Shown here piece by piece: positions 6,831-52,202 of a DNA stretch of 64,000 nucleotides. The stretch spans positions 5,733 through 69,732 of the forward strand of contig CALFYT010000076.1 in the NCBI GenBank assembly GCA_937952415.1, written 5' to 3'. A program made the translations under genes and the position numbers. How positions within the stretch are numbered: the first letter of the stretch is position 1; each line of letters starts with the position of its first letter. This DNA is from an uncultured Planctomycetaceae bacterium (GTDB taxonomy: Bacteria > Planctomycetota > Planctomycetia > Pirellulales > PALSA-1355). Under the pieces are notes generated by a model. The model had not been told where the DNA came from. It did not search any database and was given only the letters and a program-made list of their open reading frames with translations.

Positions 6831-6932
6831 GCGTAGCCTTGTTGTTCAGGAGGTGCGCCGTCGTTGCGCAGGCGGTGCGATTTCACAAAGGTCCGCGCAG
6901 GGTTGCTGCCGAGTCGCGGAGCAATGCTTCCC

Positions 6933-8066: not shown

Positions 8067-8111
8067 CGAGTTAATTGTTGATCCGCTCTGAGGTTTTGCG
8101 CCCAGTATCCG

Positions 8112-20191: not shown

Positions 20192-23299
<3,108 letters not shown>

Positions 23300-23470
23300 G
23301 ATGAATGCCTGCCAATGTGCGGGGCGGGAGGGGGAGGGGAGGGCCATCCGTTATTATGCGAACGGCCGCGTGCCACATCAAGGCGCGGTCGTCCGCGGCA
23401 TCGCATCGAAACACGCGTGCAACGTGGCGCGCCGCCCGCGACCGAACGACGTGTCGCAGCCGCTTGAGCG

Positions 23471-26400
23471 CTAAGCCGAATCGCGCGGCGGCGTCGGATT
23501 GCGGTTGAAGAGCATGTCGGCCACGACGAAGAAGACCGGCACGATCAACAGTAGCAGCACCGTGCCGACCATCATGCCGCCAATCACGACCGTGCCGAGC
23601 GATTGCCGGCTCGCCGCGCCGGCGCCGCTGGCCGTGACCAGCGGGATGTATCCGACGATGCACGTCAGCGCCGTCATCAAGATGGCTCGCAGCCGCAGTC
23701 GGGCCGCCTCGACGGCTGCCTGCGCGGCAGACTTTCCTTCGTCGCGCAGGTTCTTGGCAAACTCCACCACCAGGATCGCGCTTTTGGCCTGCAAGCCGAC
23801 GAGCATCACCAGGCCGATCTGACCGAACACGTCGAGCGATTTGTTCGTCAGCGTCAGGGCCAGGATGGCACCCAACATCGCCAGCGGCACGGCCAGTAGG
23901 ATGATCATTGGAAGCGACCAACTCTCATACTGCGCGCACAGGAACAGAAACACGCACACGATCGACATCCCAAAAATGTAGATCGTCATGTTGCCGGTCA
24001 ACAACTGCTGGTAGGTCGTGCCGGTCCATTCGTATCCAAAGCCGGTCGGCAGGACCTGATCCGCCACCTGCTCCATCGCGGCGACAGCCTGGCCTGAACT
24101 GTAGCCGGGGGCGGCTTCGCCGACGATCTTGGCCGAGAGATAGAGGTTGTAGTGCGGCACGTCAGAGGGCGCGACGATGTTGCGCACATCGCCCAACGCC
24201 GAAAGCGGAATCATTCGCCCGTCGCTGCTGCGCACCTTCAAAGTCAGAATATCTTCGGGCTTCGTACGGCGCTCGCCCTCGGCTTGCACCATCACCTTGA
24301 AGACCTTGCCGTAAAGATTGAAGTCGTTGACGTAGTAGCCGCCCAGGTTCGTTTGCAGGGTGCTGAACACATCGGCCACCGGGACGTTCAGCGTGCGAGC
24401 CTTGGTGCGGTCCAGATCGTAGTATAAGTGCGGCACATTGGCCGAATACGACGTGAACAATCCGGTCAACTCCGGGCGTTTTCGGGCCTCGGGCAGGAAC
24501 AGGTCGTTGGCCACCAGAGCCAATGTCTTGACGCCCTTGGCCTGGCGATCTTCCAGTTGGAACTCGAATCCGCCGGTTGTTCCCAGACCGGGAATGCTTG
24601 GCGGTTGAGCGACGACGGCCGTCGCCTCACGGATCTCTTTTCGCAGAATTCCGCGCATTTGCGAAACCAGCGCCGGCGCGCGCAAGGTCGCCGCTCGGCG
24701 CTCGCTCCACGGTTCGAGAATGACGAACAGCGTGGCCACGTTCGGCTGATTGACCGCGGTCACGATGTTATATCCGTCGATCAATAACACATTGCGCACG
24801 CCTGGAAGCTTCTCGGCGAACTGCGAGACGCGGCGCGAGATCTTCTGTGTCGGCTCGCGCGTGGTTCCGTCGGGCGCCTGCAGCGAAACGAAGAAGTACC
24901 CCTGGTCCTCGACCGGAATGAACCCCTTGGGCCGCGCGGCGAACAAGTAACCAAGCGGCAAGAGCAGAGCCGCGGCCACCAACGTGGTCACCCACCACCG
25001 GCGCGTCGAGCTGCCCAGCAAGGCCTGATAGGCCGACTCGGCCCGGGATAGGCCCAAATTGAACCAGCGAAACAACACGAAGTTCGATTCGTGGTGCTTT
25101 GCCATCAGAATCCGCGCCAGCGCCGGGCTGAGACTCAGCGCGTTGATCGTCGAGATGATCACCGCAAACACGATCGCCAACGCAAACTGGTTGTACAGTC
25201 GCCCGGTCAGACCTGGAATGAACGCCACCGGCACGAACACGGCGGCCAGCACCAGGCTGGTGGCGATGATCGGGCCGGTCACCTGATCCATTGCGTCGCG
25301 CACCGCTTGGCGGGCACCCTTGCCTTCGCTGAGTTGTCGTTGCACGTTCTCGACGACTACGATCGCATCGTCGACCACGGTGCCGATCGCCAGCACCAGC
25401 CCAAACAGCGTCAGCGTGTTGATCGAGAACCCAAATGCCAGCATGATGGCCAGCGTTCCGATCAGCGAGACGGGGATTGTCACCAGGGGAATCAGGGTCG
25501 GCCGCCAACCCTGCAGGAAGACGAACACGACCAGCACGGCCAGCCCCGAAGCCTGGAGCAGCGTGCTCTGCACCTCGGCGATGTTTTCCGCGACGTAGGC
25601 GGTCGTGTCGTACGCAACGGCGTAGTCGACCCCTTCGGGAAACGCCGTCTTGAGCCGATCCATTTCCTCCCGTACCTGCGCGAGGATTTCCAGCGAGTTG
25701 GCGTCGGACAACTGATACACGCCCACCGTGGCCGCCGGCTTGCCGTCGAGGTACGAACTCATTTCGTAGTTTTCGGTTCCCAGTTCGACCCGGGCCACGT
25801 CGGAAACGCGAACCACGGTCCCGTCGGGCCGGCCGAGTACGACGATGTTTCCGAATTCTTCAACGGTCGCCAGGCGCCCTTTCGCCTGGACGGGGTATTC
25901 GAACTGCTGGCCGGCGGGCACGGGCGCCGCGCCAATCTTTCCGGCGGCGGCCTGCACGTTTTCATTCTTGATCGCATCGATGACGTCGGACGGCGACGTG
26001 CCCTGTTCGGCCATCCGATCCGGATCGAGCCAGATCCGCATCGCGTATTTTCCGCCAAACAGGCTGACATCGCTCACGCCACGGATTCGCTTGAGCGAGT
26101 CCACGACGTTGATCTCGGCGTAGTTGTCCAAGAACGTGCCGTCGTACGTCCCGTCGGGCGAGACGAGCGTCACGGCACAGACCATGTTCGTCGAAGTCTT
26201 CTTGATCTCGACGCCATACTGCTTCACTTCGGCAGGCAGGGTTGGCTTGGCCAGTTCGACCTTGTTTTGTACGTCGACGGCGGCGATGTCCTGCGAGTAG
26301 CCGACGTCGAACGAAACGTTGATCTGCGACACGCCGTAATCGGTGCTACTGGAGGACATGTAGATCATGCCCTTCACTCCGTTGACCTTCTGCTCGATCG

Positions 26401-26596
26401 GCGTGGTGACCGTGTCGGCAACCACTTCGGCCCCGGCACCGGTGTACGTCGTCTTGACCTGCACCTGCGGCGGAACGATGTCGGGATAGAGCGACACCGG
26501 CAAAATGAACGCGCAGATTCCACCGGCCATCACAATCAACAGTGCGATTACCGCGGCGAAGATTGGGCGGTCGATGAAAAAGTGGACCATGAGCAA
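23471..26596 (-). CDS. RND multidrug efflux permease (HAE1/AcrB family)
   Basis: 1041 aa, starting MLMVHFFIDRPIFAAVIALLIVMAGG. 12-TM RND layout with two large periplasmic loops. Confidence 0.95.
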   Translation of the reverse strand: MLMVHFFIDRPIFAAVIALLIVMAGGICAFILPVSLYPDIVPPQVQVKTTYTGAGAEVVADTVTTPIEQKVNGVKGMIYMSSSSTDYGVSQINVSFDVGYSQDIAAVDVQNKVELAKPTLPAEVKQYGVEIKKTSTNMVCAVTLVSPDGTYDGTFLDNYAEINVVDSLKRIRGVSDVSLFGGKYAMRIWLDPDRMAEQGTSPSDVIDAIKNENVQAAAGKIGAAPVPAGQQFEYPVQAKGRLATVEEFGNIVVLGRPDGTVVRVSDVARVELGTENYEMSSYLDGKPAATVGVYQLSDANSLEILAQVREEMDRLKTAFPEGVDYAVAYDTTAYVAENIAEVQSTLLQASGLAVLVVFVFLQGWRPTLIPLVTIPVSLIGTLAIMLAFGFSINTLTLFGLVLAIGTVVDDAIVVVENVQRQLSEGKGARQAVRDAMDQVTGPIIATSLVLAAVFVPVAFIPGLTGRLYNQFALAIVFAVIISTINALSLSPALARILMAKHHESNFVLFRWFNLGLSRAESAYQALLGSSTRRWWVTTLVAAALLLPLGYLFAARPKGFIPVEDQGYFFVSLQAPDGTTREPTQKISRRVSQFAEKLPGVRNVLLIDGYNIVTAVNQPNVATLFVILEPWSERRAATLRAPALVSQMRGILRKEIREATAVVAQPPSIPGLGTTGGFEFQLEDRQAKGVKTLALVANDLFLPEARKRPELTGLFTSYSANVPHLYYDLDRTKARTLNVPVADVFSTLQTNLGGYYVNDFNLYGKVFKVMVQAEGERRTKPEDILTLKVRSSDGRMIPLSALGDVRNIVAPSDVPHYNLYLSAKIVGEAAPGYSSGQAVAAMEQVADQVLPTGFGYEWTGTTYQQLLTGNMTIYIFGMSIVCVFLFLCAQYESWSLPMIILLAVPLAMLGAILALTLTNKSLDVFGQIGLVMLVGLQAKSAILVVEFAKNLRDEGKSAAQAAVEAARLRLRAILMTALTCIVGYIPLVTASGAGAASRQSLGTVVIGGMMVGTVLLLLIVPVFFVVADMLFNRNPTPPRDSA

Positions 26597-26665: not shown

Positions 26666-28270
26666 TTACGGGGACCGGCTCGGCGCGGGCTTGGCCGGCG
26701 GCGATGGCTTTTGGGCGGGCGTATCGGAATTCGGTTGTGCCGCGGGCTGGGTCGGATTGGCGCTCGGCGGCGCTGCGCTATTCGGCGGTGTCGCGTCGCT
26801 TGGCGGCTGTTTGAAGTTGGCCGGCGATTGGGCAGCGTCCGGCGGTGCCGCGGCAGCCGATTCGGCCGGCACGTCCGGATCGATCGACTTCGCGACGTCC
26901 GGCAGATTGTCCAATCGAGGCGGCCAGGTTTCGGTTTCAAGCGGTCTGGGCGATACCTTCAGGCCGGAACGCACGAGTTGAAGTCCGTCGACAATGACCT
27001 GATCGCCCGGCTTGAGCGCCCCGGCTTCGAGCACCCGCAACCCGCGATACGTGTCCAACGCCTTGACCGGCACTGCCTTGACCGTATCACCCGCATCGAC
27101 GACCAACACGCTTTGCCCGGCCTGGCCTTCGATCACTGCTCGCTCCGGCACGACGATGGCGTTTTCGTATGTTCCGATGATCAAGTTGACACGGACATAG
27201 TCGCCCGGCAGCAGTTCCTTGTCCGGATTTGGCACGGTGGCCTTGACCAAGAAAGTCGAAGTCGTCGGGTCGATCGTGTTGTCGACGAACGTCAGCGATC
27301 CCAGGTGCGAGTACGGCCGCTCGCCCTGCACGATCAATTCCACCGCTTGTCCCTTGCCGACCAGGTCGCGGACCAGCGGCAAGAATCTGGCGGAGGGCCG
27401 CAAGTTGACCTGAATCGGATCGAGTTGTTCGATGGTCGCCAGGGCCGTGTCTTCGTTGTCGCCGACCAGGTTGCCCTCTTTCACCAGCGCTTCGCCGATG
27501 CGCCCGTCGAACGGAGCCGACATGCGGCAGTAGCTCAACTCGACCTCGGCATCCTTGAGTGCGTTCGAGGCGATTTCATGTTGGGCCTGGGCTTTGAGAA
27601 TATCGGCCTGGTGCATGACCTTGGTTTGTTCGAGCGTGGCTCGCGCCGATTCCAGGTTGGCTTTGGATTGTTCGTACTTGCTGCGTCGCTCGTCGTACTC
27701 CTCGGCGGTAATCGCGCCCGAGTCGTAGGCCTGTTTGCCGCGACGTGCTTCGGCGCTGGCCAGCAAGACTGCGGCTTCTTCTTTCTTCACGGCGGCCGCC
27801 GCCACTTCGACGCTCTTGTCTTGGGTGGCCTGTTGCAGTTGCGCTTTCGCTTCGTCCAGGTTTCCCTTGGCCGCCCCGAACTCCAGCTTAAAGGGCACTT
27901 CGTCGATCACGAACAGCAGCTCACCCTTCTTCACGTCGCTGCCCTGCTTGAACAGTCGCTCCTGCAAAAACCCTTTCACGCGGGCCCGAATCGTGACTTG
28001 CCGGATCGCCTCGGTCGTGCCGTTGCCGGTTACTTCGCGTGGGATGCTTGCCTGATAGGCTTCGGCGACGGTCACGGTCGGCGGGATCGGTTCCACCGGA
28101 GTCTGCGATGGGTTGCAGCCAGCAAGCAGCGTCAGCAACCCGACACATGCCAGCCCCGCCGCGCAATTGCGCGACAGCGCGGGCAGTGCGCACGTGAGAA
28201 CGGAATTGTGCTTCGGGCGGCGCGCGCGCGACCTGGCACGAAATTCATTCGAAACTTGGTTCCAAGCCAT
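26666..28270 (-). CDS. RND periplasmic adaptor (membrane fusion protein) lipoprotein with ~95-aa Pro/Ala-rich C-terminal tail
   Basis: Lipobox LLAGC. Coiled-coil hairpin plus barrel-sandwich blocks (GRIGEALVKEGNLV, VPERAV). The tail is PPDAAQSPANFKQPPSDATPPNSAAPPSANPTQPAAQP... Confidence 0.9.
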   Translation of the reverse strand: MAWNQVSNEFRARSRARRPKHNSVLTCALPALSRNCAAGLACVGLLTLLAGCNPSQTPVEPIPPTVTVAEAYQASIPREVTGNGTTEAIRQVTIRARVKGFLQERLFKQGSDVKKGELLFVIDEVPFKLEFGAAKGNLDEAKAQLQQATQDKSVEVAAAAVKKEEAAVLLASAEARRGKQAYDSGAITAEEYDERRSKYEQSKANLESARATLEQTKVMHQADILKAQAQHEIASNALKDAEVELSYCRMSAPFDGRIGEALVKEGNLVGDNEDTALATIEQLDPIQVNLRPSARFLPLVRDLVGKGQAVELIVQGERPYSHLGSLTFVDNTIDPTTSTFLVKATVPNPDKELLPGDYVRVNLIIGTYENAIVVPERAVIEGQAGQSVLVVDAGDTVKAVPVKALDTYRGLRVLEAGALKPGDQVIVDGLQLVRSGLKVSPRPLETETWPPRLDNLPDVAKSIDPDVPAESAAAAPPDAAQSPANFKQPPSDATPPNSAAPPSANPTQPAAQPNSDTPAQKPSPPAKPAPSRSP

Positions 28271-28503: not shown

Positions 28504-29172
28504 CTAGTCCAACTCGGTTTGGATCGCGGCCTCTAGATCTTTGGGGCGGAAGCCGAAGGGACCCTTCGCGCCCTTGAAGGCGATCTTCCCGTCGCGGCCC
28601 ACCAGGTACAACCGGTCGGGCGCCGCGGCGTAATCCTGATTCACTTTGTCATCCAGGTTGTCGATGACGGTCGGAATCGAGATCTCGAGCTTAGCACACA
28701 TCTGCTTGGCGACAGCCGTGCGATCCTTGAAGGTCGTCGGCTGCGCAAATAAGATTTCCTCGCGCTCGTTTTGCCGAACTTGCCAGCCGTCGGTCGGGTG
28801 CGCTTCGCGGATGTAGACCACCAGGAACTCGACGTCCTTGCCGTAGCGACGATACATCGCTTCCAGGGCACCAACCTGGTGCCGGAAGGGCGGTCACGTA
28901 TACGAACCGAAAATCAACGCCACCGGCCGCTTGCCGCGGAAGCGGCTCAGGCGCACCTTCCGCTTGCCATCGAGCGACGACAGTGTGAAGTCCGGCGCCA
29001 GATCGCCGACATTGTATTTTCCGTCGGGCCGCGCGCCGCGACGCAGACCTTTACCCCGCGCGTCCCGATTGGGCGGTTGCGCCACGATGGAATCGGCCAG
29101 CAGGCCCATGCAGATGATCACCGCCAATCCTTGCAAAGCGATCCGCATTTGACGCTCCGTTACAAGTTGCAT
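28504..29172 (-). CDS. Iodothyronine-deiodinase-like thioredoxin-fold selenoprotein (TGA 28894..28896 read as Sec)
   Basis: Two same-frame ORF fragments joined through one TGA. The joined sequence is ...LIFGSYT-U-PPFRHQVGALEAMYRRYGKDVEFLVVYIREAHPTDGWQV... N-terminal signal anchor. Hairpin 6 nt downstream of the UGA. sel genes are present in the window. Confidence 0.8.
28861..28887 (-). promoter_or_regulatory. Putative bacterial SECIS hairpin for the deiodinase-like gene
   Basis: mRNA sense: UGA-CCGCCC-UUCC-GGCACC-[AGGUU]-GGUGCC-CU-GGAA. This is a 6-bp perfect upper stem and a 4-bp lower stem with a 2-nt bulge, and the apical loop contains GGU. Confidence 0.5.
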
Positions 29173-29385
29173 GACACGGGGGACGCTTGCTGTTCGCCAG
29201 TCGTCGTGCGGTCTGCGCCGACTACCCGACCCTACATCATCCGCTCACGCTGGCCGCGTCTCTGTATGATACAGCACAAAATCTTCCAATCCTATGCAAC
29301 CGTCGATTCCGGCCGCGACGTCGCGTAGAATGGCACCACGTGGCCGGATCGAACGCAGTCAGTATCGCGTCGATACACGCCGGCC

Positions 29386-30849
29386 GTGAACACGCCCGCA
29401 AATGCACTCGAGCAATCCATGCCGCGCGCCATCCGACGAACCGTTTCGGCGATCATCGCCGCGCTGTTGGCCACGTGTGCATGCACTACGCTGCCTGCCG
29501 CCGACTATCCGCCGCAAGTCGGACAGCCGCATCCCGACGTGCTGCTGCCAAACATCGAGGACCGTGCACCGGTGGCCTTGTCGCAGTTTCGTGGAAAGAA
29601 ACTGTTGCTGATTCAATTCGCCTCGTGGTGAGCAGGCTGCCGACGGCACGTGCCGGTCTGGCACAAGGCAACCAAAGCGTGGCGCGAGCAGGGCAAGTTG
29701 GCCGTCGTGGGCATTACGCAGGAGCAGCATGCCCAGCGCTGCCGCCTGTTCGCTCAATGGCAGCACATCGACTGGCCGATCCTGCACGACCCGATCAACG
29801 TCACAGGACCCAGCGTGGTCCCGATCGTGATGGCGATCGACGAGCACGGAATCGTCCGCAGCGTGCGACCCAACGTTAGGACGTTCGAGCGTGATTTTCT
29901 CGACCGGACGTTTGAGCCGCCGACGGGCGATTCCGACGCCAAGCCGAATCCACTCGTCGCGCCCGACTTGGCGCATGCGAAATCCGCCGCGGAGCAGTCG
30001 AATACGGCCGCGGCTTGGAAACAGTACGGCGACGAGCTAGTTCTGTGGGGCGGCGACGAACAAATCAACAGCGCGATCGACGCCTATCGCCGCGCGCTGG
30101 CCATCGACCCGGACGACGGCGACGCGCACTTTCGACTTGGCGTTTGTTTCCGTCGCCGCAGCGAAACGTCCCTGCGCGACGACGGCGACTTCCAGCGGGC
30201 CGTCGACGCCTGGGGCCGGGGCCTCGACATCGATCCCAATCACTACATCCGCCGACGCCGCATTCAGCAGTACGGACCGCGGCTGGCCAAACCGTATCCG
30301 TTTTACGATTGGGTGCCGCGCGCCGCGGAAGCCATCCGTGCCCGGGGCGATGTGCCCATTGAGTTGGCGGTGCTTCCGACGGGCGCCGAAATCGCGCATC
30401 CGCAGCGTCGTTTCGTCGAGGCCGAACATAAGGACGCCTCACCGGATCCCGAGGGCCGCATCCATCGCGACGAGAATGAGCTGATCCAAACGGAAGTGGT
30501 CGTGGTTCCGGCGCGCATCAAGCCGGGCGAATCGGCCCGCATCCACGTCACCATGCGTCCCGACGACGGGCGACAGGCCCATTGGAACAACGAGAACGAG
30601 CCGGTCATGCTCTGGGTCGACGTGCCCGACGGATGGCAGACCGATCGCCGGCTGCTGACGGCACCGCTGGGCGACGACCCGGAATCGACCGAAACGCGAT
30701 CGATCGAACTGGAGCTCAAAGCGCCGGACAACGCCCAAGAAACGGTTCGCGTGCCGGCCTACTTGCTGTATTACGTGTGCGAGGGCGTCGACGGAACGTG
30801 TCTCTACCTGCGGCAGGACCTGCCGATCGACATCACACTGGCGCCGTGA
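29386..30849 (+). CDS. TlpA/ResA-like thiol:disulfide oxidoreductase selenoprotein (W-U-A-G-C; TGA 29629..29631 read as Sec) fused to TPR and a C-terminal DsbD-alpha-like domain
   Basis: ORFs 29386..29631 and 29650..30849 share a frame. The joined sequence is ...KKLLLIQFASW-U-AGCRRHVPVWHKATKAWREQGKLAVVGITQE... The start could also be ATG 29419 (MPRAIRR...). Hairpin 6 nt after the UGA. Confidence 0.75.
29638..29663 (+). promoter_or_regulatory. Putative bacterial SECIS hairpin for the TlpA-like gene
   Basis: UGCCGACGGC-[ACGU]-GCCGGUCUGGCA: 10 bp with two single-nt 3' bulges, starting 6 nt after the UGA. Confidence 0.45.
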
Positions 30850-30939: not shown

Positions 30940-33900
30940 TCAACTGTCCGCGGCGAACTTGGGATCATGCACCCCCAGTCGCAGCTTCCATTCCTGAACG
31001 GCGCAGTAGAGCACCGGCACGATCAGCATCGTAATCACTTCGATGAACATGCCGCCGAAACTGGGGATGGCCATGGGCACCATGATATCGCTCCCGCGGC
31101 CGGTTGAGGTCAGCACGGGAATCAAGGCCAAGATTGTCGTGGCGGTCGTCATCAGGCAGGGGCGCACGCGCCGCACGCCGGCTTCCAGGGTGGCTTGTCG
31201 CGCGCTGCGCGCATCGCGAATGTCGTGTTTGGAGAAACTCTGATCCAGGTAGGTGGCAATCACGACGCCGTCATCCGAGGCAATTCCGAACAGGGCAAGA
31301 AAGCCAACCCAAACCGCAACACTCAGGTTGATTGGGTGGATCTGAAACAGCTTCTGCATGCTCGTGCCAAACACGTCGAAGTCCAAGAACCACGGCTGTC
31401 CATACAGCCAGAGCATGATGAAGCCACCGGCCCAGGCGATGGCGATACCGCTGAATACCAGCGAGGTCGTAATCGTCGAGCGGAACTGGAAGTAGAGGAT
31501 GATGAAAATGATGAAAAGTGCCAGCGGCAGCACGACCATCAGCGTCTTGGTGGAGCGGACCTGGTTCTCGTAGTTGCCGGCGAACGTGTAGCTTACGCCG
31601 GGCGGCAAGACAAACTCTCCTTCCTCGCTTTTGCTTTCCAGATACCGCTGGCAGTCTTCCACCACGTTGACTTCCGCGTGGCCAGGCTTCATGTCGAACA
31701 GTACGTACGCGGTCAGGAACGTGTCTTCGCTCTTAACGGCCTGCGGTCCGCGAACGTACTTGATCTCGGCAACTTGACCCAATGGAATGTGTGAACCGTC
31801 CTTCGCCGGCACGAGAATCTTCTTCATCGAGTCGATTTCGTTGCGCAGCTCGCGCATGTAGCGCACGCGCACCGGGAACCGCTCGCGGCCTTCGACTGTG
31901 GTCGTGATCGTGCGGCCACCGATGGCCACTTCGACAACGTCCTGTACCTCGCGAATCGTCAGCCCGTAACGGGCGATCTTCTCTCGATCAAAATCGATCT
32001 CCAGGTAAGGCTTGCCGACGACTCGATCGGCGATCACCGCCGAAGCTTCCACGCTGGGCACTTGCTTAAGCAGCGACTCGATCTCCAGAGCCACTTGTTC
32101 AATCGTTTCCAGGTCCGGGCCTTTGACCTTAACGCCCATCGGGGCGCGCATGCCGGTTTGCAGCATGACGAGGCGCGTTGCGATGGGTTGCAGCTTGGGT
32201 GCCGAGGTCGTGCCGGGCACTTGCGCCGCCTCGGTAATTTCGTGCCAGATGTCGTCCGGGTCTTCGATGCCCGCCCAGGGCTCGCGTCCGCCATTCAGCT
32301 TGGGATCCAACGGCGGGCGCCATTGGCGAAAGGGTATTCCGCCTGGATCTGCAATCAGTTGCCCGGCTTCGTCCCGCGCGAACTTGCCTTCGACACGGTA
32401 CGGCCTTCCGTCCGCGGCCGAAAGCAGGTTCCCGTCTTTGTCTTGAAACCAATCCACTTCGTCTGGGTCATGGCGGAAGTTAACGCGATGCCCGTCTTTG
32501 TCAACGACGTACTCCGATCGGTAGTTGACGACTGTCTCGATCATCGAAACCGGAGCCGGGTCGAGTGGACTTCGCACGCGCCCGATCTTGCCGACAGCCA
32601 ACTCAACTTCCGGGATCGCCATGATGCGGCGGTCTTGCAGCGACAGCACGTCCATGGCCTCGCCGATCGAGGCATGAGGCATCGTCGTGGGCATGTACAA
32701 GTACGAACCTTCGTCGAGTGGCGGCATGAACTCCTTGCCGAATCCTTGCCATGTGGTCGCCAGCGTCCATTTCAGTTTGCCGGCCAGGCCGTCGATCTGA
32801 TCCCACGATTTGCCCCGCCACGCAGCCAGCTCATACTTGAATCGATTCAAGCTGGACAGCTCTGAAACCTCCGCCTCGGAGAGCGACTGGGCGTCGTACT
32901 CCTGCGGGATTCGGCCGAACAGAAACCCGGGGCCCAACCACACGCCGAGTCCCCACAAGAGGATTAACGCGGGCACGCACAGGAACAGCAGCTTGTGATC
33001 CAGGCACCACGCCAGAATCGGCCGGTAAAGAAATCTCTGAAAGACCTGGAAGAAACCGAGCAGGCCGCCGATCAGCGCGGCCACGAACACCAAGTTACGG
33101 AGTAAGCCGCTCGCGGGACCAAGCGGCATCCAGTCTTCCGTCAACAGAATGCCCACCAGTAGCACGGCCGCACCATTGGCCAATACGATTCCGCCCCGAT
33201 GCATGCGCTCGCGCAACGGCTGATACGTTTGCGGTAGCGTCTCTTCAATAAGCTTGTAAGTACCCAGCGCGACGACGATCGCTCCGGCCCACCAGACCAG
33301 ACCATAGCCAATGACCAGTCCGGCTACGATCAGGCCCGCGTAGAAAGTCTGCTTGAGCCGGCGTCGCGTTACTTTTGTAGTGAACAGCAAATGGGCCGCC
33401 GGAGGAATGATTGTCAGTGCCACGATTACCGAGGCCGCGAGGGCAAAAGTCTTCGTGAAAGCCAACGGGCGGAACAACTTGCCCTCGGGGCCAATCATCG
33501 TGAATACCGGCAGGAAGCTGATAATCGTGGTTGAGACGGCCGTTAGCACGGCACTGGCCACTTCGCTCGACGCCCGAAACACGACCTCCAGGCGATTCTC
33601 ATCTGGAGCAGCTTCGTCGAGATGCTTGAGAATGTTTTCACAGAGGATGATGCCCATGTCGACCATCGTGCCGATGGCAATGGCGATGCCCGACAGAGCC
33701 ACAATATTGGCATCGACGCCGAACGATTTCATGGCGATGAAGCACATCAGCACGGCCAACGGCAACAGTGCGCTGATCAATAGAGAGCTGCGCAGGTGCA
33801 TCACCATGACCAAGATGACGATCACGGTGACCAGAATCTCGGCCACCAGTGCCGAGTTCAGCGTGCCGAGCGTCTCGTAGATCAGTCCCGTCCGATCGTA

Positions 33901-35085
33901 GAACGGCACGACGGTGACTTGGCTGATCGTCACCCATTCGGGCCACTCAGCGCGCGGCGTTGCACGCAGGTGCCGAACCCAATCGTCGTGATTGATCTCG
34001 GTGCCAGTGAACGCGTCGAAACCGTTGGCTTCCGCGTAAGCAGCGGCATCTTCGCGAGACGCCTGCCGAAAGTCGACGACGGCTTTGGCCGGCAATCCCG
34101 GCGCGACTTCCTCGATCTTGCTCTTGATGTTCTTGATGGCCGCCAGCGGGTTGTAGCCGTATCGGACGACGGCGACGCCACCAACCGCCTCGGCGCCTCC
34201 TTTGTCGAGCGCGCCCCGTCGCAGTGCCGGGCCGAGCGTGACCTTGGCCACGTCCTTCAGATAGATTGGCACGTTGTCGTTGGTGGCAACGACACTGGTC
34301 TCGATGTCGCTGACGTTCTTGACGAACCCCAGTCCGCGGATGAAGTACTCTGCCTTGTTGATCTCGATGCTGCGGGCCCCCACGTCGATGTTCGACATCT
34401 TCACGGCCATAAAGATGTCGTCGATCATGACCCGCGCGGCCCGCATGGCATCGGGGTCAACGTCGATCTGGTATTCCTGGACAAATCCACCGACCGACGC
34501 GACTTCGCTGATTCCTTCGGCCGACAGCAGGGAGTAGCGGACGTACCAATCTTGAATGGTCCGCAACTCGTCGAGGTCCCACCCACCGGCCGGCTGTCCT
34601 TCGGGATCGCGCCCCTCGAGGGTGTACCAGAAGATCTGGCCAAGCGGTGTCGCGTCGGGGCCGAGCGTCGGGGTCACGCCCTCGGGCAGCGTGCCGCCAG
34701 GCAGGCTGTTGAGCTTCTCGAGCACGCGCGTCCGCGACCAGTAGAACTCGACGTTTTCTTGGAAGATGACATAGATCGTCGAGAACCCGAAGAAGGAATA
34801 GCTGCGAATCGTCTTCACGCCCGGCACGCCGAGCAGCGAGACGGTTAGCGGGTAGGTGATTTGATCCTCGATGTCCTGCGGCGAGCGGCCCATCCACTCG
34901 GTGAACACGATCTGTTGGTTTTCGCCAATGTCGGGAATCGCGTCCGTGGCCACGGGATCGCGCGGCAGTGGGCCGAGATCCCAGTCGAATGGCGCGACCA
35001 TTGCGCCCCAAGCGGTCACCGCGACAACGAACAGCGCGACGACCAGCTTGTTTTCCAAACAGAAACGTATGACCTTGTCGATCAT
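30940..35085 (-). CDS. Heavy-metal efflux RND permease (CusA/CzcA family), unusually long (1381 aa)
   Basis: MIDKVIRFCLENKLVVALFVV start. Conserved HME-RND blocks (GFSTIYVIFQE, GIAIAIGTMVDMGII, DEGSYLYMP). Extra TM pair and periplasmic insert relative to ~1045-aa CusA. Confidence 0.9.
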   Translation of the reverse strand: MIDKVIRFCLENKLVVALFVVAVTAWGAMVAPFDWDLGPLPRDPVATDAIPDIGENQQIVFTEWMGRSPQDIEDQITYPLTVSLLGVPGVKTIRSYSFFGFSTIYVIFQENVEFYWSRTRVLEKLNSLPGGTLPEGVTPTLGPDATPLGQIFWYTLEGRDPEGQPAGGWDLDELRTIQDWYVRYSLLSAEGISEVASVGGFVQEYQIDVDPDAMRAARVMIDDIFMAVKMSNIDVGARSIEINKAEYFIRGLGFVKNVSDIETSVVATNDNVPIYLKDVAKVTLGPALRRGALDKGGAEAVGGVAVVRYGYNPLAAIKNIKSKIEEVAPGLPAKAVVDFRQASREDAAAYAEANGFDAFTGTEINHDDWVRHLRATPRAEWPEWVTISQVTVVPFYDRTGLIYETLGTLNSALVAEILVTVIVILVMVMHLRSSLLISALLPLAVLMCFIAMKSFGVDANIVALSGIAIAIGTMVDMGIILCENILKHLDEAAPDENRLEVVFRASSEVASAVLTAVSTTIISFLPVFTMIGPEGKLFRPLAFTKTFALAASVIVALTIIPPAAHLLFTTKVTRRRLKQTFYAGLIVAGLVIGYGLVWWAGAIVVALGTYKLIEETLPQTYQPLRERMHRGGIVLANGAAVLLVGILLTEDWMPLGPASGLLRNLVFVAALIGGLLGFFQVFQRFLYRPILAWCLDHKLLFLCVPALILLWGLGVWLGPGFLFGRIPQEYDAQSLSEAEVSELSSLNRFKYELAAWRGKSWDQIDGLAGKLKWTLATTWQGFGKEFMPPLDEGSYLYMPTTMPHASIGEAMDVLSLQDRRIMAIPEVELAVGKIGRVRSPLDPAPVSMIETVVNYRSEYVVDKDGHRVNFRHDPDEVDWFQDKDGNLLSAADGRPYRVEGKFARDEAGQLIADPGGIPFRQWRPPLDPKLNGGREPWAGIEDPDDIWHEITEAAQVPGTTSAPKLQPIATRLVMLQTGMRAPMGVKVKGPDLETIEQVALEIESLLKQVPSVEASAVIADRVVGKPYLEIDFDREKIARYGLTIREVQDVVEVAIGGRTITTTVEGRERFPVRVRYMRELRNEIDSMKKILVPAKDGSHIPLGQVAEIKYVRGPQAVKSEDTFLTAYVLFDMKPGHAEVNVVEDCQRYLESKSEEGEFVLPPGVSYTFAGNYENQVRSTKTLMVVLPLALFIIFIILYFQFRSTITTSLVFSGIAIAWAGGFIMLWLYGQPWFLDFDVFGTSMQKLFQIHPINLSVAVWVGFLALFGIASDDGVVIATYLDQSFSKHDIRDARSARQATLEAGVRRVRPCLMTTATTILALIPVLTSTGRGSDIMVPMAIPSFGGMFIEVITMLIVPVLYCAVQEWKLRLGVHDPKFAADS

Positions 35086-35105
35086 CTTGAAACGGCAACG
35101 CGGGT

Positions 35106-37862
35106 TTAGGGATGGCTGTGGTCTGTGTGGGGCTCGGCCTGCGCCGACGGTTTCGATCCGCTGTGCGAAACCTTTTCCACACGGTCAGCACACTTGAGCA
35201 TGGCGGCGCCAAAGTAGGGATTGAGCGTATCGTCGTTGTCCTGATACCAGGTGGCTCCTCGGCCTTGAAAAGCCATCGAACAGTGGAGTTCAAAGATTGG
35301 ACCGGACTGGCCGAAGCCGAACGTCTTGGCCAGGACGCCGATCTCCTGGGATGCGGGATAGAACGTCTCGCGCATCGCCTCGATGCCTTCGGCCTGCTTG
35401 AGGCTGGCAATCAGTTTCTCAAGGTTCGCCTGTTCTTTTTGCCAGGCTTCTTTGGCAGGACCTTCGAGTGCCGTGTCATTAACGGCGTTGAGCGATGCAT
35501 TGAATTGGCCGAGTGAGTCCTGTGCGGATTTAAAGTCGTCCGCGGCCAGCGCCCGCTGAACGTTCAAGTACTGTTTCCATACACCGGCCAATTCACCTTG
35601 GAACTCCGCTGGCGCTTCGATACGTTCGATCTCTAGGTCCTGTTGCTGCATCAAGCCCAGTTGTTCCCGCATGCGGCGGACGTGGCCCTTAAGCGTCAGA
35701 AACGCTCGGTTGGCATCGACCATTTGGTCGGCGTCAGTTCCCTCGACGACATCGTTTCCGAAGAGCATGGCAAACTCCTTCCATAACATGCGCGGATGGC
35801 CGGTGACTTCGGTGTCGTCGACGGCCGCCAATTCCTCGCCGAGCTGCCTGAAAATCGTTGTGACCTGATCCAGGTCCTGGTCTTGCACGGCCGCAGCCAA
35901 CTTGTCGTACGTCGCGGCCAGATCAAGAAGTTGTTGGCGGAAGGCGGGCGGAAGGGCGACTGGGTGTCCGGCGTGCGGATCGTCCGACTTGCCTTCTGCT
36001 AGTTCGCCCTGCCCGCCATGATCGTGGCCACCGCCGCCGCCCCCCTCGGGTGTCATCATGCTGGGTTTGGCTTGAATTTGGATCTCGGAATCCAGCTTGA
36101 AGTTGCCCCGCGTCACCACCATCTCGCCTTCGTGCAATCCGTTGCGAACAAGATAGTATTCGCCGGCGCGTGGTCCCAAGACGATCTCGCGGCCTTCAAA
36201 CGTCGGGTTGTTGGCCGGCGCGAATTGCTCCCGGGCTAAGGTCATCGTTGCTTCGATGTCAGCAAGAACCTCCTTAGCTTGCTCCGCTGACCCGGCCTCG
36301 TAGCCCGCCAAAGCCTTCTCAGCGAGTCGATCGGCATAGTCGTTCCACAGATTTCGCGCGAACGCTGTTCCAGGCTGGTCGTACGGTCGGTCCAACATGT
36401 TGTTGTAGCTGGTAAACGCCTCGCGAATCTTTTCGAGGTCGCCTTCTTGCACAACGGCCGAAAGCGTAAGAAACGCCGGCTCGGCGAAGGAGGGCATGTT
36501 CGGCAACTGCACGTAGACGATCGCACGCGTGCCCGTAACCAACGCGGCCAAATAAGGCACCACCAGCGGAGGCTCTTCCGAGTCGGTCGACGGCGTTACG
36601 TAGCCCAGCGATTCGGCGCGCACCAGCGGCATCCCACAGATGTCGCACTGGCCGGGCTCGTCCTTGACGATCTCCGGGTGCATCGGACTGATCCACTTGC
36701 CCGCCAGGCTGGGATCCATCACTTTCCCGCCCGCGGCCACGACCGGACGCACGACGGCCCGGACAAACATGTCGGGCTTGAGCTTGCCGTCGCCATTCGG
36801 CACGTTGACGCGGACCTTCACCGTGCGCGTCTTATCGTCCAGCACCGGCTGAACGAACGCGATCCGTCCGTGAAACTCATCGCCCGGATAAGCCTCGGTG
36901 GTGATCGTCACGTCCTGGCCGTAGCGAATCCAAGGCAGGTCCGACTCATAGGCATCTAGATGGACCCAAACCTGACTCAGATCGGCGATCGTGTAGATAC
37001 GTTCGCCAAGCGCGACCCGCTCGCCCTGCTGTTTGAGCTTTTCGATCACGATGCCGCCCATCGGGGCATGGATCGTGATGTGATCCGATGGGGCGTCGCG
37101 CTTCTCGATTTCCGCGATTTGTTCTTCCGTCAGCCCCAGCAGCCGCAACTTCTCGCGGGCGGATTCGACGAGATTCACCTTGATGGTTGTCGACTCAGCG
37201 GCCCGACTGCGGTTGAACTTCTCAGCTTGAATCAGTTCCTGCTGCGCCGCGTAGAGCTGCTCGCTGTAGATATCCGCCAGGTGGTCACCCTGCCGGATTT
37301 CCACACCGGTGTAGTCGACATAAAGCCGGTCCAAGCGACCGGAAACCCAGGCCGTGATGTAGCCGAGGCGCGTCTCGTCGTAGTCGACACGGCCAACCAT
37401 CCTCACGTCGCGCGGTACGTAGCGCCGTTCGACCGGCGCGACCTCGATGTTCATCAGCGCCGCCGCCTCGGGGCTGAGGGCAAGCGTGCGCATCCCCCCG
37501 GCGGTTTGTGTTACGGCAATCAAATCCATCCCGCAAATCGGGCAATCGCCCGGCTTGGGCTGCCGGATCTGCGGGTGCATCGAGCACGTCCATGCCGTCG
37601 GGCCCGCGGCCGCGTCTGCGACAGCGTCAGCGTCGCTGCTCTTTTCTTCGGACGCATCGTGCCCGCCCCACAACAACCACGAGATGAACATTGCGGCGGC
37701 AAAGACGAGCGCGAATTGCGCAAGCCGAACGATCCTTGGATGTGCTGCGTAGCGGTTCCTGGTGGCCGTGGCACCGGGCTCGCGCGATGCATGTGTTTCG
37801 GGGTTCATACCAAAAGCTCCCGTCGTCGGCACTGCACGAGTGGGCGCGCACCAACGATTCAC
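35106..37862 (-). CDS. Heavy-metal RND periplasmic adaptor (CusB-like) with two heavy-metal-binding domains, a His/Gly-rich tract and a DUF3347-like C-terminus
   Basis: WTCSMHPQIRQPKPGDCPICGMDL and WISPMHPEIVKDEPGQCDICGMPL motifs. GGGGGHDHGG tract. C-terminal CSMAFQGRGATWYQ...NPYFGAAMLKC. Alternative start ATG 37808. Confidence 0.85.
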   Translation of the reverse strand: MNRWCAPTRAVPTTGAFGMNPETHASREPGATATRNRYAAHPRIVRLAQFALVFAAAMFISWLLWGGHDASEEKSSDADAVADAAAGPTAWTCSMHPQIRQPKPGDCPICGMDLIAVTQTAGGMRTLALSPEAAALMNIEVAPVERRYVPRDVRMVGRVDYDETRLGYITAWVSGRLDRLYVDYTGVEIRQGDHLADIYSEQLYAAQQELIQAEKFNRSRAAESTTIKVNLVESAREKLRLLGLTEEQIAEIEKRDAPSDHITIHAPMGGIVIEKLKQQGERVALGERIYTIADLSQVWVHLDAYESDLPWIRYGQDVTITTEAYPGDEFHGRIAFVQPVLDDKTRTVKVRVNVPNGDGKLKPDMFVRAVVRPVVAAGGKVMDPSLAGKWISPMHPEIVKDEPGQCDICGMPLVRAESLGYVTPSTDSEEPPLVVPYLAALVTGTRAIVYVQLPNMPSFAEPAFLTLSAVVQEGDLEKIREAFTSYNNMLDRPYDQPGTAFARNLWNDYADRLAEKALAGYEAGSAEQAKEVLADIEATMTLAREQFAPANNPTFEGREIVLGPRAGEYYLVRNGLHEGEMVVTRGNFKLDSEIQIQAKPSMMTPEGGGGGGHDHGGQGELAEGKSDDPHAGHPVALPPAFRQQLLDLAATYDKLAAAVQDQDLDQVTTIFRQLGEELAAVDDTEVTGHPRMLWKEFAMLFGNDVVEGTDADQMVDANRAFLTLKGHVRRMREQLGLMQQQDLEIERIEAPAEFQGELAGVWKQYLNVQRALAADDFKSAQDSLGQFNASLNAVNDTALEGPAKEAWQKEQANLEKLIASLKQAEGIEAMRETFYPASQEIGVLAKTFGFGQSGPIFELHCSMAFQGRGATWYQDNDDTLNPYFGAAMLKCADRVEKVSHSGSKPSAQAEPHTDHSHP

Positions 37863-37930
37863 TCAACAAACCAGAAGAAGGACTACGACCGATCAGAAGA
37901 TAGGCGCATACCGGTAGCGCCCCAGTCGCG

Positions 37931-38335
37931 TCAGGCGTCCAGACGGACGTGGCAAGCCTGCAGTGTGCATCCAGCAGGCGAGAGAAGCGTTTCGGACGAA
38001 ATCAGACCGCGGGAGACGGCCGGTCCGTCGCCTTGTCGGTAGGCAATCGCATCGTGCGCAAGCGCGAGCGACAAAGTGTCAATCCGACGGGCGTCGGGTC
38101 CGCCAGCAGGCACGGAGTTTGACTTTGCCGGCGGCGCCTGTTTGCTCACGCAGCAACCGGTGTCGCAGGATTGGCCATCGGCGGGCTTACAACAGCAGTC
38201 CGTCGGCTGCGGCTTCGATGTTTGTCCAAATACGGCGGGCTGCTGGCAGCCAAACGGCGTCAGCCCGAGTCCACCGACGCTGACCACCAGGGCCAAGACC
38301 AGCAGACAACGAAATGTGGGGTGAAGATGCGACAT
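37931..38335 (-). CDS. Small secreted Cys-rich protein, first gene of the heavy-metal RND operon
   Basis: Start MSHLHPTFRCLLVLALVVSVGGLGL (signal). CCCKPADGQSCDTGCCV cluster. Same strand as the adaptor gene, 68 nt upstream of it. Confidence 0.55.
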   Translation of the reverse strand: MSHLHPTFRCLLVLALVVSVGGLGLTPFGCQQPAVFGQTSKPQPTDCCCKPADGQSCDTGCCVSKQAPPAKSNSVPAGGPDARRIDTLSLALAHDAIAYRQGDGPAVSRGLISSETLLSPAGCTLQACHVRLDA

Positions 38336-38481
38336 CAATGCAATTATAGGCAAGTTTTCGAGCGTCGGCGCCTCTACAAACGCGCATCGCTTAACCACAA
38401 TTCTGCCCGAAAATGGCCGATTTGGCCATCGGCGGCCCGCAATGACCGGGCTCCGGACGCCCATCCGATGCATCACCCAAA

Positions 38482-40200
38482 TTGGGGGTAGTGCGGATGG
38501 CTGTGTCGTCCGACGGAGCGTCAGCCTGGCAGACCTTGCGGTTTGTACCGCTTGTGACCGGAGGGACGGGGCAATTGCTCCGCGTCGCCGGCTCGGCTGG
38601 GCATTCCGGCTGCACGTTAGGCCTACGGTGGCCGATACAACCGATAGACTCTGCCCGAGTCACATTTCCCTATTCCGCACTTCGGCTCGCCCTGTCCAGC
38701 TCCCGTCCGGGGGTAGTTCGCTTGATCCGCACGTCGATCGATTCCGATCGGCCGCCGCGATTTGTCGGCTGGCCTGTCTTCGTCCTATGCGCCTTGATGC
38801 TAGGCGCGTTGGCGGGCTGTCGGACCTCGCGCAAAGTGCAGACGCCCGAGTTCGCATCGCTTGCCAGGCTTCCTCTCGTGGCGTCCGTGTCGCCCGCGGC
38901 GGTCGCGCGAGCTGTCGATCCCCAAGTCCCGCAACTGGCCGGGCCGCATCCCGTTGACCAGTACGTTCAGTTCGCTCTGCTCCAGAACCCAGACATCCAA
39001 TCCAAGCGCAACCGGGTGGAAGCAGCCGCGCAGCGAGTTCCCCAAGCCGCGAGCCTGCGCGACCCCACAGCAACTGTCTCTGGCTATCCGTTCTCGTCCT
39101 ATGCGCTGCAGACGGCCAACGGCCGACTAACGGCCAACCTGGCGGCGTCGCAAGAAGTGCCTTGGTTCGGAAAGCTAGAAACACGGGCCCAGGCCGCTGA
39201 AGCAGAAGTCAACGTTGCCCGAGCTGAGTTGGCCGCCACGGAACTTGAAGTGATCGAGCAGGTGAAGCGGGCCTACTACGAGCTGCACTTTGTCGAGAAA
39301 TCGATCGCGATCACGGCGGAAAGCCGCAGACTGGCAGTCGATCTGAGTCGAATCGCCGAAGCACGGTTCAAAGCCGCCCAGGTCAGCCAACAGGACTATC
39401 TGCGGGCGGAAGTAACCGTCTACAACGTCGATGCCGAGCTGATTCGCCTGCGCGAGGAGTTGCAATTGGCCCAGGCACGTCTGGCAAGACTCCTGCACAT
39501 CTCGCCCGACACGCCGCTGCGAACCCTGCCGGAGCTCGCCGATGAGGAATTGCCAACCGACTTGCAGCGACTCTACGAGCGCGCGATCGCCGCGCGGCCC
39601 GAACTACACGCGCAGCTTGCCGCTATTCAGCGCGATCGGCATGCGGTGCGACTTGCGCAGCTCCAATACTTTCCCGATGTAACGTTCAGTGGCAGTTGGG
39701 GAGCCGTAACCACCAACCGCGCAGTGGCGTTGGCGGCCGACGGCCGCGATTTCGCTCAGTTCGGCATCATGGCCAACATTCCGATCTATCGGAAGCGGCT
39801 TCAAGCCGGCGTGCGCGAGGCCGAGTCGAAGACAGTCGCCAGCGCCCGCCAGTACGATTCGCTCCGCGACAAGACCCAGCAGGAAGTCAAGGATCTGTTC
39901 GTCGAGATCAATGCGCAAAGAGATCTGTTACGCGTCTTCGACACACAAATCGTCCCGGTGGCCGAACAAACGTTGCGTGTTTCAATTCCGGCCTACGAGT
40001 CCGGCCAGACCGACGTCCTGCAGCTCTTGGACAACTGGCGCGACGTGCTGCGATTTCAGATCATGCAACAGCGGCTCGAAGCCCAAGTCCGCCAGTCGCT
40101 GGCCTCGTTGGATCGAGTGATCGGTACATTCACAGTATCTGACCCAACCACGAGGCGTCTGCCCGAAACCATTCCCCCGCCCGAGGGTTCAACGCCATGA
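38482..40200 (+). CDS. TolC-like outer-membrane efflux protein (OMF) lipoprotein
   Basis: Two OEP-type repeats with coiled coils. Lipobox LGALAGC. The true start is probably internal (e.g. TTG 38722), because the first ~80 codons of the ORF lack a leader-like sequence. Confidence 0.85.
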   Translation: MGVVRMAVSSDGASAWQTLRFVPLVTGGTGQLLRVAGSAGHSGCTLGLRWPIQPIDSARVTFPYSALRLALSSSRPGVVRLIRTSIDSDRPPRFVGWPVFVLCALMLGALAGCRTSRKVQTPEFASLARLPLVASVSPAAVARAVDPQVPQLAGPHPVDQYVQFALLQNPDIQSKRNRVEAAAQRVPQAASLRDPTATVSGYPFSSYALQTANGRLTANLAASQEVPWFGKLETRAQAAEAEVNVARAELAATELEVIEQVKRAYYELHFVEKSIAITAESRRLAVDLSRIAEARFKAAQVSQQDYLRAEVTVYNVDAELIRLREELQLAQARLARLLHISPDTPLRTLPELADEELPTDLQRLYERAIAARPELHAQLAAIQRDRHAVRLAQLQYFPDVTFSGSWGAVTTNRAVALAADGRDFAQFGIMANIPIYRKRLQAGVREAESKTVASARQYDSLRDKTQQEVKDLFVEINAQRDLLRVFDTQIVPVAEQTLRVSIPAYESGQTDVLQLLDNWRDVLRFQIMQQRLEAQVRQSLASLDRVIGTFTVSDPTTRRLPETIPPPEGSTP

Positions 40201-40481: not shown

Positions 40482-40512
40482 TCGCAGGCGCGACACGTCT
40501 CAGATTCACAAG

Positions 40513-40609
40513 CGGGAGTGGATGGGAATCGAACCCACCTGAAATCTGTTTGACGGATTTCACAACGGGTTTGAAGCCCGCGGCCGCCACCAGGCGTGCT
40601 GACACTCCC
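40513..40609 (-). tRNA. selC: tRNA-Sec (anticodon UCA)
   Basis: 97 nt: GGGAGTG...CACTCCC-G acceptor. Anticodon loop CTTCAAA on a GCGGG/CCCGT stem. 7-bp long variable arm TGAAATC/GATTTCA. T-loop TTCGATT. Acceptor + T helices sum to 13 bp. No encoded CCA. Lies 86 nt downstream of selA. Confidence 0.85.
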
Positions 40610-40695
40610 GAAATACGCTTCCCTTCTAGGCGTTATCCGCGATTCTATTGTCTAGGCAGCATGCCGCTACCGGGCTGACGTCGATATCGACAACG

Positions 40696-42156: not shown

Positions 42157-42192
42157 TTGGAAATTATACCACCTGCCGCAGGACGGCGCATC

Positions 42193-44145: not shown

Positions 44146-44244
44146 TGTAGCAGCCGTGACGCGCCGCGGGCCGAACCTCCGTGCGTGGAACCGGCCCGCG
44201 CCCGTCGATACAATGGCGCGCTCTTGGTCCTCGATTCGCCCGAC

Positions 44245-52187: not shown

Positions 52188-52202
52188 CGCGCAACTCGCG
52201 TT

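Follow-up and report, generated by a model that had tools for sequence, protein, structure and literature searches.

Two divergent selenoprotein genes in a Pirellulales bacterium, a deiodinase-family protein and a three-domain TlpA-like protein, and a tentative redox link between them

In a 64,000-nucleotide stretch of DNA from an uncultured Planctomycetaceae bacterium of the order Pirellulales (contig CALFYT010000076.1, positions 5,733 to 69,732; this whole stretch is called the window here), two divergent reading frames are each interrupted by a single in-frame TGA. An earlier reading made from the letters alone (the sequence-only reading) had described these back-to-back frames, which we found as it gave them and which we call genes A and B. 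The locus raises two questions, namely whether both genes encode selenoproteins and whether the two products work together as a periplasmic two-component redox module.

The UGA codons, their hairpins and the decoding machinery

Translation of the open reading frames (ORFs) shows that gene A (28504..29172, minus strand) comprises 222 codons and encodes an exported-looking protein of the deiodinase family, with its UGA, the presumed selenocysteine (Sec) codon, at 28896..28894. Gene B (29386..30849, plus strand) comprises 487 codons when the longest ORF is taken and encodes, according to translation and Pfam, an exported-looking protein of three domains; its UGA lies at 29629..29631. The charged N-termini and the homologues in a related locus, L117, indicate that translation probably starts further inside, at ATG 29148 for gene A (MRIALQ...) and at ATG 29419 for gene B (MPRAIRR...).

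The interrupting codon is strongly conserved in both families. A stop codon occupies the Sec position in 80 of the 80 closest metagenomic relatives of gene A, and the residues F(G/A)(S/N)(Y/F)(T/S) directly before it are kept in all of them. Among the database relatives of gene A are full-length cysteine forms, sequences where W was entered for the UGA by the gene caller, and C-terminal fragments of about 122 aa that are cut at the UGA. For gene B, all 80 genomic loci of its relatives have the TGA within ASW-U-xGCR, and the three-domain architecture is shared.

Bacterial selenocysteine insertion sequences (SECIS) are hairpins that follow closely after the UGA and have a small, G-containing apical loop (PMC1088965). 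The sequence-only reading had placed a hairpin 6 nt after each of the two UGAs, which proved right for gene A, where the distance is 5 nt and covariation is strong. The gene A hairpin (28860..28888, minus strand) has the sequence CUUCC-GGCACCA-GGU-UGGUGCC-CU-GGAAG, forming a 5-bp lower stem, a 2-nt bulge and a 7-bp upper stem with the GGU apical loop 17 nt after the UGA. It was defined by folding and by covariation across 79 sequences, in which the upper stem shows many compensatory changes; hairpin columns 16/28, for instance, read G-C in 21 sequences, C-G in 18, U-A in six, U-G in six, A-U in two and G-U in one. The covariation and the number of double changes were reached by 0 of 500 shuffles, and the element is a sound bacterial SECIS.

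In gene B the long hairpin at the 6-nt distance does exist, but it was rejected as a SECIS: 73% of it is paired, it shows no covariation and 361 of 500 shuffles equal it. The region after the UGA is altogether no more stable than shuffled sequence (z = +0.99). What is conserved is a shorter hairpin, the probable SECIS core at 29649..29665 (plus strand; (C)GUGCC-GGUCU-GGCAC(A)), which starts 17-18 nt after the UGA and has a GGUCU loop starting 23 nt after it. Over 80 sequences the short hairpin, (C/U)GUGCC-loop-GGCAC(G/A), is paired in 90.8% of cells. Of the 60 sequences with the peptide H-V-P-x-W-H, 59 encode the Val by GUG, and likewise 59 encode the second His by CAC; codon use elsewhere in gene B is mixed (GUG/GUC/GUU = 15/14/6, CAC/CAU = 8/7). 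At the first His codon the third base, a synonymous site, covaries with the base that follows the stem (C-G 38, U-A 8; Fisher p ~0.001, not corrected for phylogeny), and the two form the closing pair. Since the V-P-x-W-H peptide also constrains the stem, the SECIS evidence for gene B is weaker than that for gene A. About 20 sequences of the B family read A-V-P-A-W-N at this place and have a shifted 7-bp stem, CCAG(G/A)CC/GG(C/U)CUGG, with a compensatory change of its own. A third hairpin (columns 15-33) was discarded as a general element of the family, as it fits only this subgroup.

The window also contains a complete Sec-decoding cluster (40512..46461), located 10-17 kb from genes A and B. 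On the minus strand lie the tRNA-Sec with anticodon UCA (40512..40609; ARAGORN, and Rfam RF01852 with 67.4 bits), selA for selenocysteine synthase (40696..42156; PF03841, E=7e-137) and selB for the Sec-specific elongation factor (42193..44145; GTP_EFTU, SelB-wing_3 and Beta-barrel_SelB). Divergent from selB, on the plus strand, an ORF encodes selenophosphate synthetase, SelD, fused to a Pyr_redox_2 domain (43918..46461; PF07992, AIRS and AIRS_C); this ORF probably has its true start after position 44145. When the window was crudely scanned for more UGA-interrupted redox genes, the result was too noisy in such GC-rich sequence, with only genes A and B standing out.

Because each gene keeps its UGA in 80 of 80 relatives, the protein folds span it, the SECIS elements are conserved and the Sec machinery is present in the window, comparative evidence identifies A and B as genuine selenoprotein genes, predicted to be decoded by this machinery via a SECIS of their own each. 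The alternative that the UGAs are ordinary stops, giving four small genes or two pseudogenes, follows what automated gene callers report (A is split into 84+117 aa, B into 70+399 aa) and the length of the database entries for B, all about 399 aa, but its probability is negligible, since each single fold would be split exactly at its catalytic residue, conserved codons flank the conserved TGA on both sides, the SECIS elements are kept, Cys forms of gene A exist and a full set of Sec genes is at hand. The truncation is widespread in public records. All 120 best database matches of gene B are proteins of about 399 aa that start just after the UGA. The public calls for a near-identical contig (L161; ENA ERZ869940 NODE_214, 2855..5200) are likewise 84+117 aa for A and 70+399 aa for B, and the gene B homologue of Tautonia rosea (RefSeq WP_169977222.1) is a 400-aa "tetratricopeptide repeat protein" devoid of the catalytic site. 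The names under which gene B stands in public records, at 399-400 aa, are those of a TPR or a hypothetical protein.

The two predicted proteins and their known relatives

Both kinds of selenoprotein have been reported before. Deiodinase-like selenoproteins and selenoproteins resembling thiol-disulfide isomerases (UxxC, cd02966) were both described in 2005 in the Sargasso Sea selenoproteome (PMC1088965), and both are included among the more than 110 prokaryotic selenoprotein families of a 2026 review (PMC13188914). The sequence-only reading had assigned a thioredoxin fold with Sec as the attacking residue to both proteins, and also N-terminal export or anchor signals; the active sites T-U-P-P-F (A) and W-U-x-G-C (B) and the N-termini, read by eye as charged and then hydrophobic, agree with this.

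The N-terminus of gene A, MRIALQGLAVIICMGLLADSIVAQ, has this charged and then hydrophobic pattern. Its active site is FGSYT-U-PPF, with the U directly following a conserved Thr as in deiodinases. Residues 53-216 match Pfam PF00837 with 119.9 bits (cut-off 27; E=1.4e-34), and the protein aligns to the structure of the mouse Dio3 catalytic domain, 4TR3, with E=5.9e-24. In this alignment FGSYT-U-PPF lies opposite FGSCTCPPF of 4TR3, and the Dio-type insertion YIREAHPTDGW opposite YIEEAHPSDGW of Dio3. E123, A124, H125 and W130 of the insertion are invariant in 23 sequences; the Glu/His motif of this insertion (EAHPSDGW) has been proposed to act as a proton relay (PMC11592359). Gene A thus shares FGS-x-T-U-PPF and the EAHP(T/S)DGW insertion with bacterial deiodinase-like selenoproteins and with animal deiodinases, and it has in common with the deiodinase family the occurrence of both Sec and Cys forms and a small SECIS loop containing a G. 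Where the animal enzymes have a membrane anchor, gene A has a signal peptide that looks cleavable. Two residues to which roles have been assigned in Dio3, the thyronine-carboxylate clamp Arg275 and the distal Cys (PMC11592359), are not conserved either: the clamp position is Lys in gene A and mostly Pro in its relatives, and the position of the distal Cys is Ile/Pro, with a semi-conserved Cys in the preceding helix instead.

The match to the NCBIfam model NF038285 (deiodinase_rel) reaches 233.3 bits with a cut-off of 250 and covers model positions 177-340 of 347; gene A stays below the cut-off because it lacks the N-terminal part of about 175 residues typical of that family. Its sequence places gene A as a new member of a known family, small, with one Sec, in which the catalytic Ser/Thr/Sec and Glu/His motifs are kept.

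Gene B begins with MPRAIRRTVSAIIAALLATCAC, again charged and then hydrophobic when read by eye, with a possible lipobox, LATC, that is also found in homologues. The first domain is a TlpA/ResA-like thioredoxin-fold domain (29515..29910, plus strand) with the active site FASW-U-AGC-R, in which U takes the N-terminal, nucleophilic position of W-U-x-G-C. It matches AhpC-TSA (PF00578; 39.9 bits, cut-off 26) and Redoxin (PF08534; 33.2 bits, cut-off 26.6), and its matches in the PDB are ResA, TlpA and thioredoxin-family proteins. V57 is invariant and P58 near-invariant in the alignment, at the place where the conserved V-P of this fold is expected, so that P58 probably corresponds to the cis-Pro position.

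Tetratricopeptide repeats (TPR) and a linker follow (29968..30273, plus strand), as indicated by matches of gene B to Pfam TPR families, by the structural model and by Foldseek, which returned TPR proteins for this region. In the AlphaFold model of the 399-aa part, the TPR helices (predicted local distance difference test, pLDDT, ~85-97) and a C-terminal beta-sandwich are confidently predicted. The linker after the repeats, PNxYIxRRRIQQYGPRLxKPYPFYDW, is very conserved.

The third domain is an immunoglobulin (Ig)-like beta-sandwich according to the AlphaFold model (30421..30846, plus strand). Its 142 residues modelled alone gave a pLDDT of 92.4, and Foldseek retrieved only generic Ig-like sandwiches with TM-scores of ~0.4-0.5. 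It carries a CX6C pair, encoded by TGC at 30778..30780 and TGT at 30799..30801, with the two cysteines on either side of a beta-hairpin turn; both (C377 and C384) are kept in every one of 29 sequences. In combining a thioredoxin-fold site with an Ig-like domain bearing a Cys pair, gene B resembles DsbD, which has such an alpha domain and a thioredoxin-fold gamma domain, and differs from it in lacking the membrane beta domain. We considered an identity of the C-terminal domain with DsbD-alpha and rejected it: DsbD_N (PF11412) matched only 2 of 29 members with E>=0.053, no PDB profile matched, and no DsbD-alpha was found in the Foldseek top 50.

The closest genomic relative is a Pirellulales metagenome-assembled genome. 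Relatives of gene B occur in about 530 species-level genomes, from Planctomycetota, Acidobacteriota, Gemmatimonadota and other groups. A simple form with Cys in place of U was found neither among the 80 genomic loci, all of which have Sec, nor in an exhaustive search of representatives, which gave almost only forms truncated at the UGA. Cys homologues are known for most selenoprotein families, which makes this lack unusual. The active sites of four full-length homologues without Sec (P0356, P0357, P0377 and P0382) read SxxC or CxxS or are free of Cys, and the CX6C pair is absent from all four. From this joint loss (n=4) we infer that the two sites of gene B work together; in these homologues the whole redox function looks to have been lost, rather than Sec having been replaced by Cys.

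Compared with the TlpA-like UxxC selenoproteins (cd02966), the N-terminal domain of gene B is likewise of the TlpA/ResA type with Sec at the nucleophilic position, and to this gene B adds the TPR module, the very conserved linker and the Ig-like CX6C domain. No NCBIfam model captures this three-domain subfamily. The best is NF041054 (WAxxUGC_long, 'UGC-containing TlpA family'), which matches weakly over the thioredoxin and TPR parts (55.1 bits, cut-off 300); its motif is WAxxUGC, while that of gene B is W-U-x-G-C (FASW-U-AGC). Taken together, these comparisons assign gene B to a known kind of TlpA-like selenoprotein, as a three-domain subfamily that is uncurated and uniformly truncated in the public records examined, and its product is predicted to be an exported, possibly lipid-anchored oxidoreductase.

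The neighbourhood of genes A and B

To compare gene neighbourhoods, 80 loci with flanks of up to 8 kb were sampled for gene B, 70 of which are informative for the upstream neighbour, and 80 loci for gene A, 35 of which are informative (at least 1 kb upstream). An exported gene of the peroxiredoxin (Prx) fold adjoins gene B upstream in 14 of the 70 informative loci, and at least 12 of these neighbours have an in-frame UGA. They belong to three different families, and both divergent and co-directional arrangements are seen. In 13 of these loci, from Gemmatales, Isosphaerales and other groups, a Prx-like gene lies 21-230 nt upstream of gene B (L010, with the neighbour at 1104..1694, L028, L029, L031, L035, L041, L043, L045, L047, L053, L054, L060 and L073), with gaps of 21-176 nt in the co-directional arrangements; the fourteenth is locus L001, with a distance of 905 nt. 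The motif FYRSASW-U-PxCQKQ is visible in the alignment for nine of the Prx-like neighbours. Sel genes were not found nearby in the 13 loci.

Gene A, or an operon containing it, and gene B are divergent neighbours in the window and in L161, L117 and L001. The L161 gene B product is 99% identical to that of the window. Across this set the divergent neighbourhood has been kept even though protein identity is 60-66% and the surroundings have been rearranged locally. L001 carries, in this order, gene A, a third exported selenoprotein gene, and then divergently gene B, directly followed by tRNA-Sec, selA and selB. This third selenoprotein (6401..7597, minus strand) has an N-terminal part of HEAT-like repeats fused to a Prx domain with VYGDT-U-PVC; its gene is on the same strand as gene A and ends 57 nt upstream of the gene A start, which suggests that the two form an operon.

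Between gene B and the tRNA-Sec gene of the window lies a cus-like operon for heavy-metal efflux (30940..40200). It encodes an unusually long CusA-like pump of 1381 aa, an outer-membrane factor, and a CusB-like adaptor of 918 aa with two heavy-metal-binding domains and DUF3347. The GC content of this operon is slightly lower than that around it (0.595-0.60 versus ~0.62-0.65). Horizontal transfer was considered and dropped, because GC is uniform at 0.60-0.65 over 18-48 kb and gives no such signal. Genes neighbouring A and B contain PSCyt1/PSCyt2/PSD1 and DUF1501 domains (Pfam).

Further away in the window, more than 19 kb from gene B, a respiratory/redox cluster (49782..63172) encodes a CtaG-like oxidase assembly factor of 801 aa, a fusion of cytochrome b with cytochrome c, a COX1 of 782 aa and a di-haem cytochrome c peroxidase joined to a NosD-like beta-helix; its proteins are potential clients for a TlpA-type protein. 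At 6933..9230 (minus strand) there are two tandem genes for GluR0-like ligand-gated ion channels, in which a solute-binding-protein fold is interrupted by Lig_chan, the ion-channel pore.

Possible redox partners of gene B

Experiments in Caulobacter crescentus have shown that electrons flow from ScsB through TlpA to PprX, a peroxiredoxin of the periplasm (PMC3322552). An exported TlpA-like reductant serving an exported Prx-fold enzyme is the same logic that we propose for gene B with gene A or with the Prx-like UxxC proteins. The present case differs in that both partners would use Sec and that gene A is of the deiodinase type and not of the BCP/PrxQ type. We favour, tentatively and at somewhat less than an even chance, that the gene B product is a periplasmic reductant of exported Prx-fold selenoenzymes, with gene A as one of several clients. 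The main evidence, the recurrence of Prx-fold neighbours, lends weak support to such a role, and the Caulobacter precedent is the other support. The divergent arrangement kept in L161, L117 and L001 and the joint loss of Sec and the CX6C pair count in its favour as well. Since gene A has no resolving Cys conserved at the position known from Dio, an external reductant for it is plausible.

The selenolate of gene B would attack an exported Prx-fold selenoenzyme in its oxidised state (selenenic, selenenyl-sulfide or selenenyl-halide) and bring it back to the reduced one, along a path parallel to that from ScsB via TlpA to PprX in Caulobacter. The client would be gene A in this Pirellulales lineage and a Prx-like UxxC selenoprotein in Gemmatales and Isosphaerales. 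The TPR module might hold the client or an upstream donor, and the C-terminal Cys pair might serve the UxxC site as an electron relay, in one direction or the other. The pairing of A and B would be facultative; most genomes keep the two genes apart, so each could also work with other partners.

Several observations weigh against this coupling. A deiodinase-like gene was found near gene B in only one of the 80 B loci (L001), where a third gene lies between the two, and gene B was found near gene A in only one of the 35 informative A loci (L117), where the two are again divergent, with 349 bp between them. Counted over the other loci, this makes 1 of 79 for gene B and 1 of 34 informative ones for gene A. 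The adjacency of A and B is rare and confined to one narrow lineage, and co-localisation in other genomes, by which the proposed pair was to be judged, mostly fails beyond L001 and L117. About 80% of the informative B loci are without a Prx-fold neighbour. No CcdA, DsbD or ScsB was found among the scanned ORFs of the window, and the direction of electron flow, reductase as opposed to oxidase or isomerase, is assumed from the precedent of the TlpA family. Since gene B of L001 adjoins tRNA-Sec, selA and selB, the clustering may simply reflect a neighbourhood of Sec-trait genes.

The spacer between the two genes adds to these points. It had been read as a shared control region of 213 bp (29173..29385 in the ORF map). 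The divergent spacer is real; with the inner ATGs as starts it would instead measure about 270 bp (~29149..29418), and it shows neither conservation nor a sigma-70 promoter. Its alignment with the equivalent region of L117 was essentially random, and no sigma-70-type match was detected in it, although planctomycete promoters may differ. A conserved regulatory sequence between A and B was therefore rejected, leaving only short inverted repeats: a small palindrome, GTATCG-CGT-CGATAC (29362..29376), and a 10-nt inverted repeat, TCCGGCCGCG/CGTGGCCGGA, with arms 21 nt apart (29308..29348). Neither is conserved in L117, and both possibly arose by chance. The two-component redox module of the sequence-only reading is, on balance, plausible and not established, with the 14 Prx-fold neighbours in 70 loci speaking for a looser form of it and the co-localisation data speaking against the specific pair.

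The strongest competing explanation is that A and B are independent and exchange no electrons directly, having become neighbours only because selenoprotein genes of this Pirellulales lineage have gathered near the Sec-decoding genes, through common inheritance, co-transfer or co-regulation by selenium supply. We regard this as a serious possibility, albeit a doubtful one. L001 unites gene A, a Prx-type selenoprotein gene, gene B, tRNA-Sec, selA and selB, and the set in the window is broken only by the cus-like operon. Beyond this lineage A and B are hardly ever found close to each other, and clustering of the flanking ORFs over the 80+80 loci gave no cluster present in more than 12 loci and thus no widely conserved neighbour of either gene. 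The Sec-trait neighbourhood in this lineage is a sufficient non-functional explanation of the A-B adjacency. It does not extend to gene B in general: among the 80 loci, sel genes lie near gene B only in L001 and, as a partial selB, in L046, so that they were rejected as a general neighbour. Clustering with sel genes therefore cannot explain the 13 pairs of gene B with a Prx-like gene, which persist in two orientations.

A maturation role for gene B that has nothing to do with gene A appears rather improbable. The protein would then be a thiol reductase of the CcmG/ResA/TlpA type with a CcmI/CycH-like TPR module, and would keep the cysteines of exported apocytochromes c or of copper centres reduced. 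TlpA-family members do act in the maturation of cytochrome oxidase and cytochrome c (PMC3322552), a precedent which favours this role. The TPR region matches PF23914 (TPR_CcmH_CycH) weakly but recurrently, in 20 of 29 members with a best E of 2.3e-5; these matches fall short of the cut-off set for this family, and TPR families cross-match. Planctomycetes encode many proteins with cytochrome c domains, the PSCyt1 protein at 20192..23347 in the window being an example. No cytochrome-biogenesis genes are conserved beside gene B, and a maturation role would leave both the recurrent Prx-fold selenoprotein neighbours and the C-terminal Cys-pair domain unexplained.

Far less probable still is that gene A dehalogenates a toxic halogenated small molecule, with gene B regenerating gene A and a resistance-nodulation-division (RND) pump exporting the substrate or product. 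The sequence-only reading had noted such a pump downstream of gene A, and it is indeed there: a gene for an HlyD-type adaptor (26666..28270) starts 233 nt downstream of gene A on the same, minus strand and is followed by an AcrB-type pump gene (23471..26596; Pfam). The pair and the deiodinase catalytic motifs kept in gene A would fit the idea. The pump is, however, absent beside gene A in L001 and forms no recurrent neighbour cluster in the 80 A loci, and a weak terminator-like site lies between gene A and the pump genes. The position of the Dio3 clamp Arg275 is Lys in gene A and mostly Pro in relatives, which also speaks against the idea, and a generic redox role was argued for the deiodinase-like family as early as 2005 (PMC1088965). 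The suggested link to halogenated compounds is not borne out, and nothing in the sequences points to thyronine-like or halogenated substrates of gene A.

Returning to gene B as a reductant of Prx-fold selenoenzymes, a wider form of this reading, which we consider unlikely though worth stating, would make it a self-contained periplasmic electron-transfer protein that recycles such enzymes in an all-selenium antioxidant or dehalogenating pathway of the envelope, and a representative of an apparently Sec-requiring, uncurated family. It would act by its U-x-G-C site together with the TPR module for client binding and the Ig-like CX6C domain as a relay, and its clients would be the deiodinase-like, Prx-like UxxC and HEAT-TUxxC selenoproteins. 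With the annotation of gene B corrected, prokaryotic selenoproteomes would gain a sizeable family. The lack of a Cys form of gene B, together with its Prx-fold selenoprotein neighbours, points to an envelope redox pathway in Planctomycetes and Acidobacteria that depends on selenium, and the coupling, if true, would give bacterial deiodinase-like proteins a first candidate for a physiological partner.

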